Shown here piece by piece: positions 54,350 to 55,842 of a DNA stretch of 64,000 bases. Source of the stretch: Escherichia coli (lineage in GTDB: Bacteria; Pseudomonadota; Gammaproteobacteria; Enterobacterales; Enterobacteriaceae); NCBI RefSeq assembly GCF_009931435.1, contig NZ_CP043414.1; one strand, given 5' to 3'. Both the position numbers and the translations under genes were made by a program. Position 1 is the first letter of the stretch. Each line of letters begins with the position of its first letter. The notes below the pieces were generated by a model. The model was not told where the DNA came from and made no database searches. It worked only from the letters and a program-made list of their open reading frames with translations.

Positions 54350-55020
54350 TTTGCGCACTCCTGACGTTTAGCAACATATGTGGCTTGCCCTGAATACCGG
54401 GCACCACTGTATTGATGCTCATTTTCCATAGCCATTCCCTTTTGTTCATTACATCCATGTCAGTCTGAGACAGGCCTGAATCCTGTCAGCAAAGTATAAA
54501 ACCTTACTTGCCTATGAATATCTACTGACTTTTCAGGAAAAAAGTCATGATTTGATAAAAATCATCAAACTCAAAAAAAAACTGCTAGTATATTCTGAAT
54601 ATTCCGAATAGTTACGTAGATGAAAATACTTGTCACCGCCGCTACTTAATCCCGGCGGGACATTATTTATTTTCGTATAATCAACCATGTATTACTTGAA
54701 ACAATTAGTTTGTAAATAATATAAATTGATAACATATCAAATACATCAAAAACACCATTCACAGGCATTATTAATATAGACATCAATATAACAACATCAA
54801 ATTCCAATTAGTAATAAGATATGCTTTTTAATTGCATGCAAATAATTTTAAATGAGCGTTTTTTGATACTTTAGAGTGTTTCCCACCCTTTCATATGACC
54901 GTGTAGAGTTGATATCACTACAACAGAAACATGCATGTCATTTGTTTACTTCTCTTTTTACTACAGAAAAATTTATCTATTTTTCTAAGCATCAGTGAAA
55001 TACTCATAAAGGTAATTAAT

Positions 55021-55842
55021 ATGTCTATGCCAATAAGCAATGCCGCTAACAACAAAATTTTTACAGATAATCATTTCGCTCATCATCCAAATGCCGATAA
55101 AGAATTAGCAGACAGTATGCCCTCGCATCTTAACTCGGAAAACATCTATGTCAGACCTCTTGTTCGTGGAAATAACCATAACTATGATGGGGGAAGTGTT
55201 GTCGAAATTAGACAGCTTGAAATTGGTAAACAAGGGTATTGGCCATTCAATTACGTAACAGCCGCATGTAAAGAATCCGATGGTATTTCAATCACAGGAA
55301 ACATACGCTGTGGTACCTGGAAGGCCAGCTCAGTATTAGACGGAATATACGGTGGAGTATGTAAAAAGGCGCATGTTTCCGCAGCGTTAGAAGCTGGTCT
55401 ACGGTTTAACCTAACTATGGATTCTAAAATTCCAAACACGATACATGAAATAACCCTAGGCCCTGGTTGCAATGTTCCAGGCTATGCGGGAACCACGATA
55501 GGATACCTGGCAACACTCCCCCTTGAAAAGGTTGAAAATTGGCAAGATACAACACTGCCAAGAATTGATATCTATATTGATCAGATAATGACTGTGTCAG
55601 GGGTAGCAAATTCTTCCGGATTCGCCCTTGCTGCATTACTTAATGCTAATATTGGAATGGGAAATGACCCAATAATTGGTATAGAAGCCTATCCTGGTAC
55701 CGCTGAGATCCACGCTAAGATTGGATATAAAGTTATCCCCGGGGATGAAAATGCACATGTCAAACGTATGACTCTGCAACCGTCATCTCTCCCAGAACTG
55801 TTTGAATTAAAAAATGGTGAATGGAATTATATTGGTAAATAA
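55021..55842 (+). CDS. yjiC: Uncharacterised protein YjiC
   Basis: Start chosen at MSMPISNAANNK (273 aa); AT-rich gene preceded by about 550 bp AT-rich intergenic region; upstream extension to 54931 not favoured. Confidence 0.65.
   Translation: MSMPISNAANNKIFTDNHFAHHPNADKELADSMPSHLNSENIYVRPLVRGNNHNYDGGSVVEIRQLEIGKQGYWPFNYVTAACKESDGISITGNIRCGTWKASSVLDGIYGGVCKKAHVSAALEAGLRFNLTMDSKIPNTIHEITLGPGCNVPGYAGTTIGYLATLPLEKVENWQDTTLPRIDIYIDQIMTVSGVANSSGFALAALLNANIGMGNDPIIGIEAYPGTAEIHAKIGYKVIPGDENAHVKRMTLQPSSLPELFELKNGEWNYIGK

Follow-up and report, generated by a model that had tools for sequence, protein, structure and literature searches.

Analysis of a 64,000-nucleotide stretch of Escherichia coli DNA (contig NZ_CP043414.1; the whole stretch is referred to as the window) indicates that yjiC, a DUF2686 family gene, and the AT-rich DNA separating it from the divergently oriented iraD probably constitute a conserved Escherichia module, made up of an AT-rich iraD/yjiC control region plus yjiC itself. 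This corrects the picture given in a first-pass annotation, where the locus had been taken for a horizontally acquired, H-NS-silenced gene with a long upstream region of its own: the AT-rich DNA would represent a constrained, stress-inducible control region mainly for iraD and not inert, silenced DNA. Statements on H-NS binding, promoters, CsrA control and stress induction are based on the literature on strain K-12, and those on composition, annotation, conservation, mosaic structure and taxonomic range on the sequences analyzed here.

The AT-rich region between iraD and yjiC

From the open reading frames (ORFs) of the window and the RefSeq annotation of near-identical loci, the gene order yjiH-yjiG-iadA-hypT-iraD(-)-gap-yjiC(+)-uxuR(-)-uxuB(-) can be derived. 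The two divergent genes and the features between them are as follows (aa, amino acids; GC, guanine plus cytosine content).

53957–54349, minus strand: iraD, encoding the RpoS-protecting anti-adapter, left gene of the divergent pair (NCBIfam IraD equivalog, E 1.9e-86; Pfam GPW_gp25; RefSeq)
54346–54429, minus strand: idlP (ORF27), iraD leader peptide (RefSeq; 27-aa ORF with 25 of 27 residues as in common E. coli)
54430–54510, minus strand: iraD proximal promoter P2 and CsrA-binding leader (placed by position relative to the fusion of PMC5574718, TATACT and GGA motifs)
54545–54688, minus strand: ytiD (ORF47), small ORF of the P1-derived iraD leader (RefSeq; 41 of 47 residues as in E. coli locus L002)
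54667–54768, minus strand: ytiC/ytiB (ORF23 or 33-aa form), first small ORF of the P1 transcript (20 of 22 residues conserved)
54773–54800, minus strand: probable iraD distal promoter P1 (-35 TTGATG, 16-nt spacer, -10 TATATT; consensus scan)
54801–55020, plus strand: AT-rich core (GC about 0.29–0.30), expected site of the yjiC promoter and 5′ untranslated region, back-to-back with P1
55021–55842, plus strand: yjiC, 273 aa, DUF2686 (YjfZ/YjiC family), predicted GNAT-like fold

Between the iraD ORF and yjiC (54359–55020, 662 bp), the GC content is 0.320, and it amounts to 0.303 in the portion beyond idlP (54430–55020, 591 bp). The lowest values of the entire window for both 300-bp (0.263, starting at 54691) and 500-bp segments (0.284, starting at 54531) fall into this gap, the minimum of which is about 3 standard deviations (sd) below the window mean of 0.489 (sd 0.07), bearing out the strong AT-richness noticed upstream of yjiC in the first-pass annotation. 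The same applies to the AT-rich codon usage ascribed to the 273-aa ORF, with a GC content of 0.411 for the yjiC coding sequence and of 0.318 at its third codon positions (GC3), compared to GC3 values of 0.48–0.66 in the neighboring genes (iraD 0.48; iadA, hypT, uxuR and uxuB 0.58–0.66). Richness in A-tracts is only partly upheld: 16 A/T runs of at least four nucleotides are present in the AT-rich region versus 11–12 in shuffled sequences (P about 0.1), mostly reflecting AT content and not representing a significant excess. When checking for curved DNA upstream of yjiC, only moderate curvature was found, our own approximate wedge model ranking the region just near the 6th percentile of the window. 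The ORF start of yjiC at 54931 had already been suspected to be an upstream extension, and this is corroborated by the RefSeq start at ATG 55021, an AGG Shine-Dalgarno (SD) motif at 55010–55012, 8 nt 5′ of this ATG, a Pfam match from residue 1 on and the yjiC ORF of Escherichia albertii, for which a further upstream extension is not possible. The mechanical iraD ORF extends to a GTG at 54358, with the iraD ATG at 54349.

According to Park et al. (2017, PMC5574718), the iraD leader holds ORF23, ORF47 and ORF27, and its distal promoter P1 and proximal promoter P2 are covered by fusion fragments reaching from -547 to -413 and from -254 to -133, respectively, relative to the iraD ATG. Bound to four GGA sites, CsrA prevents ORF27, the stop codon of which overlaps the iraD start, from being translated and thereby represses IraD (PMC5574718). 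Transferred to the window, the P1 and P2 fusions map to 54762–54896 and 54482–54603, respectively. Within the latter interval, a minus-strand TATACT is found near 54505–54500, and for P1 the position within the published fusion fragment makes 54773–54800 the probable site. Minus-strand GGA motifs at 54483, 54456, 54438, 54427 and 54361 correspond to the four published CsrA sites plus a fifth one overlapping the SD motif (PMC5574718). RefSeq ytiC corresponds to 54667–54735, and the 33-aa YtiB form of ytiC/ytiB is listed in PMC6001520. Moreover, a match to the HusR (YnfL) box is located within ytiD at 54582–54597, where the window sequence CTGCTAGTATATTCTG differs in 1 base from K-12 (CCGCTAGTATATTCTG; published in PMC12844172). 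Taken together, about 430 of the 662 bp are iraD promoters and leader, comprising P1, P2, ytiC/ytiB, ytiD, idlP and the CsrA sites, which is not compatible with the gap being the own long upstream region of yjiC. As only about 220 bp are left between P1 and the yjiC ATG, iraD and yjiC represent a back-to-back divergent pair. The stretch had also been described as intergenic; its AT-richness stands, but with three small minus-strand genes annotated in RefSeq it is not plain intergenic DNA.

Compared to common E. coli, the gap is 96.6% identical (3.4% different), reaching 99.5% at 54400–54599. Across 4,885 genomes it is 95–99% identical and better conserved than the adjacent yjiC coding sequence. 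As divergence is 14–22% at the synonymous sites of the flanking genes (synonymous divergence, dS, 0.14–0.22), the non-coding DNA of the gap appears to be under constraint.

In K-12, the orthologous region has been described as promoter island 4554354_526 yjiC(-)/iraD(+) (Panyukov and Ozoline, 2013, PMC3661553). It is bound by H-NS in the chromatin immunoprecipitation (ChIP) data of Kahramanoglou and Oshima, and GIST, Nakamura and Lawrence class it as foreign (PMC3661553). Hence, the proposed comparison with H-NS ChIP data could be made via the K-12 literature, and since the gap is 96.6% identical, binding probably transfers to the window locus. At 54970–54979, the sequence TAGATAAATT is 1 mismatch away from the H-NS motif TCGATAAATT; consensus counts for H-NS and DnaA boxes in the region are at chance level, with the H-NS motif not being enriched. 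Classic targets of H-NS are fimB, fimE and the virulence-plasmid genes of Shigella. After exposure of Shigella to RNA polymerase inhibitors, yjiC is up-regulated along with virulence-plasmid genes, fimB/fimE and shiA (PMC3299763), a pattern expected of an H-NS-controlled set. Treatment of K-12 with azidothymidine (AZT) induces ytiC more strongly than any other gene (260-fold), accompanied by ytiD (33-fold), idlP (18-fold), iraD (14-fold) and yjiC (11-fold), and this induction is LexA-independent and partly SspA-dependent (PMC11228462). From the earlier view of an H-NS-silenced gene, the binding of H-NS can accordingly be retained on the basis of two K-12 datasets, whereas the response to AZT in K-12 and the induction of yjiC together with virulence genes in Shigella argue against constant silence.

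Range, age and mosaic alleles of yjiC

Searching 5.8 billion clustered proteins retrieved 25 clusters for YjiC and 5 for YjfZ, and all given source names were Escherichia or Shigella. An exhaustive hidden Markov model search of 1.84 billion representatives yielded only short fragments of DUF2686. The family thus appears confined to Escherichia and Shigella in protein-cluster searches, and a housekeeping homologue of yjiC, which would have spoken against the first-pass annotation, is not among the proteins found. A genome scan of GTDB for DUF2686 gave only E. albertii and one 'Collinsella' contig, its negatives not being firm as E. coli itself was not returned. The latter contig (JAIJJM010000835.1, L006, 1283 bp, from a 'Collinsella sp.' metagenome-assembled genome) encodes a DUF2686 protein with 41% identity over residues 49–271, as K-12 YjfZ, and most likely represents E. 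coli contamination of the bin.

In K-12-like E. coli, the seven genomes carrying the window allele and E. albertii alike, yjiC is flanked by iraD and uxuR and oriented divergently from iraD; E. albertii shows the identical iraD(-)-yjiC(+)-uxuR(-) order, and its gap is just as AT-rich (GC 0.31). No tRNA genes are present in 48–62 kb of the window, only 12-nt chance repeats flank the locus, and integrase, transposase or mobility genes are absent from the annotated loci. Likewise, no phage copies of yjiC were found, and 'plasmid' matches were limited to records of 0.37–4.9 Mb, i.e., of chromosome size. Given the synteny in E. albertii and the lack of a tRNA, mobility gene or flanking repeat, any acquisition of yjiC would be older than the split of E. 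coli and E. albertii, and the locus does not appear to be a recent island. Of the claim of horizontal acquisition, a recent occurrence is not supported.

In 532 of the 5,426 complete E. coli genomes (about 10%), the 5′ part of yjiC was undetectable. At one such yjiC-less locus examined, that of strain U1 (L003, 5300–6700), homology ends at about 54613 and resumes at uxuR, with segment 54614–55982 gone, and the strain therefore lacks P1, ytiC, the greater part of ytiD and yjiC all at once. Its iraD shares 78% identity with the window allele and is closer to E. albertii, and a remnant is kept of a gene for a phosphoenolpyruvate-binding protein which in E. albertii is situated upstream of iraD. 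Just inside the segment missing in U1-type strains, a 14-nt inverted repeat (54704–54717/55903–55916, 93% complementary) brackets ytiC, P1 and yjiC; this AT-rich repeat is probably a chance match. Besides, IS1 or IS600 insertions in or beside yjiC are seen in some strains, and truncated variants also occur. In a YjiC variant of 296 aa (P0002), about 20 residues of the variable N-terminal part (KEPWPFNYVTGACRESDGII; columns 71–90 of alignment A1) are duplicated in tandem and in frame.

It is against this background that a horizontally acquired islet, consisting of yjiC with its own long upstream region and kept silent by H-NS, has to be judged. The syntenic locus in E. albertii places any acquisition before that split, and neither a tRNA, integrase or flanking repeat nor a phage or true plasmid copy was detected. 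Moreover, most of the AT-rich DNA is iraD promoter and leader, more conserved than the synonymous sites of the neighbors, and the locus is strongly inducible (PMC11228462). We therefore regard the islet as doubtful, albeit in line with GC values of 0.30–0.41 amid GC-normal genes, with a K-12 region flagged foreign and H-NS-bound (PMC3661553), with no homologues outside Escherichia/Shigella in the searches made, and with about 10% of complete E. coli genomes being devoid of yjiC, the unit 54614–55982 including P1, ytiC and yjiC having been lost in U1.

Within yjiC, two parts of contrasting divergence can be distinguished (pLDDT, predicted local distance difference test).

55030–55600, plus strand: divergent mosaic patch of yjiC, codons about 4–193, with N-terminal extension and predicted β1–β4 arm
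55601–55842, plus strand: C-terminal third of yjiC, conserved, with N197-x-x-G200-F-A202 and H231-x-x-x-G-Y in the predicted cofactor-binding arm (pLDDT 70–89)

When aligning the window with the typical E. coli locus, the flanks are 91–99% and the gap 94–99.5% identical, whereas identity is only 65–77% in the first two-thirds of yjiC. Mismatches per 50 bp versus common alleles are 0–4 up to 54999, 8–37 across 55050–55599 and 1–7 from 55600 on, with a conserved island (5 mismatches) inside the patch at 55450–55499. Accordingly, the patch (codons 16–185) shows a dS of 0.81 and a non-synonymous divergence (dN) of 0.30 versus common E. coli, compared to 0.26 and 0.03, respectively, in the C-terminal third (dN/dS 0.12; 0.10–0.13 versus three common alleles) and to 0.14–0.22 and 0.003–0.024 in the flanking genes. 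Between E. coli and E. albertii, dS is 0.70–0.83 and dN about 0.30 in the N-terminal part of yjiC, and iraD and uxuR reach a dS of 0.80–1.0 and a dN of 0.03–0.17. Judged by these values, the patch appears to be as old as the split of the two species, within an otherwise E. coli-like gene. It is at least 99% identical in 7 of the 5,426 complete genomes and at most 73.7% identical in all others, and the common yjiC alleles form a continuum of 90–100% identity. A third deep allele class (P0014/L013) has its first 23 residues in common with the window type, and full-length YjfZ sequences fall essentially into one 90%-identity cluster.

As donors of the patch, yjfZ via gene conversion (dS >2, 36% identity) and E. 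albertii (dS 0.70) were both rejected. The most economical reading would be a simple recombinational import from an unsampled lineage. Synonymous divergence is 0.14–0.22 versus typical E. coli also across iadA-hypT-iraD-uxuR-uxuB (51200–59000), by estimate far above the usual within-species level, and blocks of 91–100% identity are mosaic among strains. This neighborhood lies next to gntP-fimH and close to a hotspot of recombination, the fim region.

Alternatively, balancing or diversifying selection on the acceptor half of the protein, directed at a variable target such as a phage, competitor or host factor, might have kept the patch, with no neutral import. This seems unlikely, as the patch dN/dS of 0.35–0.45 is below 1 and gives no gene-wide signal of positive selection, and as the rarity of the window class (0.13% of genomes) is more in line with sporadic import than with a balanced polymorphism. 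Furthermore, the neighborhood as a whole is unusually polymorphic and close to the fim hotspot, and the PADLOC and PHROGs libraries gave no match for YjiC or YjfZ. Selection would nevertheless account for discrete allele classes without intermediates, for a patch dS of 0.7–0.8 next to young flanks, for the third deep class (L013) and for common alleles already being 5–10% apart in the patch, compared to the single YjfZ cluster; also, if YjiC is a GNAT, the patch would coincide with its acceptor arm.

Still more improbable is that yjiC is a decaying orphan without a function of its own, its variability resulting from relaxed constraint and its expression being a by-product of P1. The N-terminal dN/dS of 0.35–0.8 (0.81 between two common alleles), the IS1/IS600 insertions, truncated variants and internal duplication in some strains, the absence from about 10% of genomes and the poorly modelled N-terminal 130 residues could be read in this way. 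However, 4,875 of the 5,426 genomes contain no less than 80% of the 560 bp at the 5′ end of yjiC, the ORF is intact in every allele class translated as well as in the E. albertii orthologue, dN/dS in the C-terminal third is 0.10–0.13 versus three common alleles, and YjiC and YjfZ share 71 invariant columns despite saturated dS. In addition, a transposon insertion resulted in a biofilm defect (PMC4100040).

The allelic structure bears on a published quantitative PCR (qPCR) assay designated 'YjfZ' for detecting E. coli in water (PMC11057252). Both primers match K-12-type yjiC exactly (L002, 4094–4207), and the probe shows 1 mismatch, whereas the oligonucleotides have at least 7 mismatches to K-12 yjfZ and at least 6 to the window allele (55290–55400, with no primer site). 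As they match K-12-type yjiC and neither the yjfZ locus nor the window allele, the assay appears to target the variable part of yjiC and should miss the window allele as well as the roughly 10% of E. coli without yjiC.

Predicted fold of YjiC and neighboring features

Although no domain had been recognized in YjiC by the first-pass annotation, the protein is a full-length match to Pfam DUF2686 (PF10887; E 2.7e-113, 378.1 bits at a cut-off of 25; residues 1–273 versus profile positions 1–285) for which a GNAT-like fold can be predicted. The identity of window YjiC amounts to 69–72% with common YjiC alleles and, across residues 49–271, to 40% with YjfZ. The structure prediction suggested earlier was run with AlphaFold2 and gave a GNAT-like fold in models of low confidence (mean pLDDT 53), with the order of elements b1-a1-a2-b2-b3-b4-a3-b5-a4-b6-b7 in both window YjiC and K-12 YjfZ. 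Foldseek searches against viral models had acetyltransferases among the matches, and the toxin-type GNATs KacT, TacT and AtaT top the fold ranking, by margins too small to carry meaning. In GNATs, the pyrophosphate-binding loop Q/R-x-x-G-x-G/A is located between β4 and α3. At the corresponding site after the predicted b4, YjiC has N197-S-S-G200-F-A202 and YjfZ N-A-L-G-F-I, with N, G and F being invariant in the family. The predicted a4 bears H231-A-K-I-G-Y in YjiC and Y-S-G-L-G-F, the canonical Tyr-x-x-x-G-F pattern, in YjfZ. Two family-invariant motifs are found where GNAT motifs A and B would be. Based on the models, a GNAT-like fold of YjiC is likely, and enzymatic acyl transfer is plausible but unproven. 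The patch would then cover the acceptor-site arm and the conserved C-terminal third the cofactor arm. With N197, G200 and H231 (Tyr in YjfZ) as candidate residues, the predicted fold may provide a first testable functional lead for the orphan family DUF2686.

A more far-reaching proposal, in which DUF2686 is a cryptic, Escherichia-only branch of GNATs, yjiC is wired back-to-back with iraD to the LexA-independent response to replication stress, the acceptor half is maintained in E. coli as discrete allele classes dating back to the split from E. albertii, because diversity in the modified phage, competitor or host molecule is selected for, and the window allele is a functional specificity variant and no neutral import, strikes us as quite speculative and a long way from probable. 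Hardly credible is that YjiC, in the manner of TacT, AtaT or KacT, acts as a GNAT toxin within a type II toxin-antitoxin pair, as no supported plus-strand ORF for an antitoxin-like partner is found upstream, the 660 bp carrying minus-strand iraD leader ORFs, as YjiC is about 100 residues longer than these toxins and has His versus their catalytic Tyr, and as PADLOC gave no match.

Downstream of yjiC, two further features can be assigned (MFE, minimum free energy).

55944–55972, no strand assigned: GC-rich stem-loop between convergent yjiC and uxuR (MFE -17.4 kcal/mol on the plus and -19.6 kcal/mol on the minus strand)
55983–56756, minus strand: uxuR, right-hand GC-normal neighbor (ORF and RefSeq annotation; GC 0.53)

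The stem-loop (z -4.3 on the plus and -4.9 on the minus strand versus shuffles) is probably an intrinsic terminator shared by yjiC and uxuR, with the better U-tract on the uxuR strand; it failed the T-run rule of the terminator scan, in which no canonical terminator was found. An Rfam E-value search of 53800–56200 gave only chance matches. On the other side, hypT and iraD are convergent, and their 3′ ends overlap by 8 bp (53957–53964). IraD matches Pfam GPW_gp25 (E 2.6e-14) and, weakly and under the cut-off, TssE of the type VI secretion system (T6SS) baseplate (E 6e-13, 48.6 versus 53.2 bits); judged from these profiles, it appears to be of phage/T6SS baseplate-wedge ancestry, and no other T6SS or phage genes are adjacent. 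Elsewhere in the window, three further blocks fall more than 2 sd under the mean GC content in 1-kb windows (19641–23020, 28041–29060 and 39201–42290).

Proposed model and comparison with known systems

In the model favored here, transcription leftward from the gap would start at P1 and produce a leader of about 420 nt with ytiC/ytiB, ytiD and idlP, then passing P2 and the CsrA sites, which would control IraD synthesis by translational coupling to idlP. Rightward, yjiC would be transcribed from a putative promoter in the approximately 220 bp separating its ATG from P1. With a GC content of about 0.29, the AT-rich core is of the kind coated by H-NS and is bound by it in K-12; it may keep both arms low in unstressed growth, and replication stress would de-repress them via a LexA-independent, SspA- and DnaA-linked route; we infer co-regulation of iraD and yjiC through this one shared H-NS patch. 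YjiC and YjfZ, the two paralogues of the family, would represent very divergent acyl-CoA-dependent acyltransferases of GNAT fold, with a fast-evolving N-terminal acceptor arm. As to the origin of the divergent patch, we infer that about 570 bp of the N-terminal part of an E. coli-like yjiC were replaced through homologous recombination, the incoming DNA stemming from a lineage that is either very old or unsampled.

Several observations speak against parts of this model. The K-12 island is unflagged in the Grainger data, one of the three H-NS datasets (PMC3661553), and the H-NS and stress data stem from K-12 and Shigella, i.e., from strains other than that of the window. The AZT study saw no global relief of H-NS-repressed genes (PMC11228462), and de-repression at the locus may therefore be specific (DnaA, SspA, HusR) instead of H-NS-mediated. 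A simple sigma-70 consensus scan found no plus-strand yjiC promoter above threshold, and promoter-like sites in the region, 4 versus 7.6 ± 2.6 in dinucleotide shuffles, are not in excess; promoter islands were defined by PlatProm and not by a consensus scan, making this test of promoter density a weak one. Regarding the protein, mean pLDDT is 53, with values below 50 for residues 1–130 and 10-residue block means of 49–89 in the C-terminal 130 residues, and both AlphaFold2 models were built on essentially one shallow alignment. Motif A starts with N and not with the Q or R of GNATs, and in YjfZ its final G/A is missing. With the C-terminal half of YjiC, Pfam gave only DUF2686 and no acetyltransferase at E values up to 10, searching PDB sequences with a profile yielded nothing above noise (best E 0.06, no GNAT), and hhalign of DUF2686 versus the RimI profile resulted in a probability of 0.2%, both profiles being shallow (RimI alignment 83–89% identity). 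The only phenotype is the reduced biofilm of a single, uncomplemented transposon mutant (PMC4100040).

For K-12, the AT-rich, H-NS-bound and foreign-looking character of the locus has already been published. The modest additions made here are the prediction of a GNAT-like fold, the confinement to Escherichia, the rare mosaic allele, the deletion as a unit in about 10% of strains and the mis-targeted qPCR assay. Besides, a sharply bounded, very old patch in a widely carried gene is a handy case for studying intragenic recombination and diversifying selection.

Compared to known systems, YjiC differs from the GNAT superfamily by having no detectable sequence or profile similarity, by the low confidence of its model and by an N-terminal extension of about 57 residues with a conserved RG-x-x-HN-x-DG motif, which, to our knowledge, is not known from GNATs. 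With a full-length match at 378 bits, it is a regular member of DUF2686, but the window allele belongs to a rare class that, over its first approximately 190 codons, has diverged from common E. coli alleles to the same degree as the E. albertii orthologue. All elements of the iraD P1/P2 leader system (PMC5574718) recur in the window, spaced from the iraD ATG as expected, with idlP over the iraD start, five GGA motifs, ytiD, ytiC and P1- and P2-like hexamers, differing only by a few substitutions (IdlP 25 of 27, YtiD 41 of 47 and YtiC 20 of 22 residues identical); yjiC, back-to-back with P1, was left out of consideration in that study. With the K-12 promoter island (PMC3661553), the orthologous window locus shares a 96.6% identical gap, gene order, small ORFs and AT-richness, whereas our scan of the window does not show an excess of promoter-like sites over shuffles. 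In contrast to H-NS-bound silent regions, finally, the locus is not transcriptionally dead, as P1 drives the most AZT-inducible transcript of K-12.

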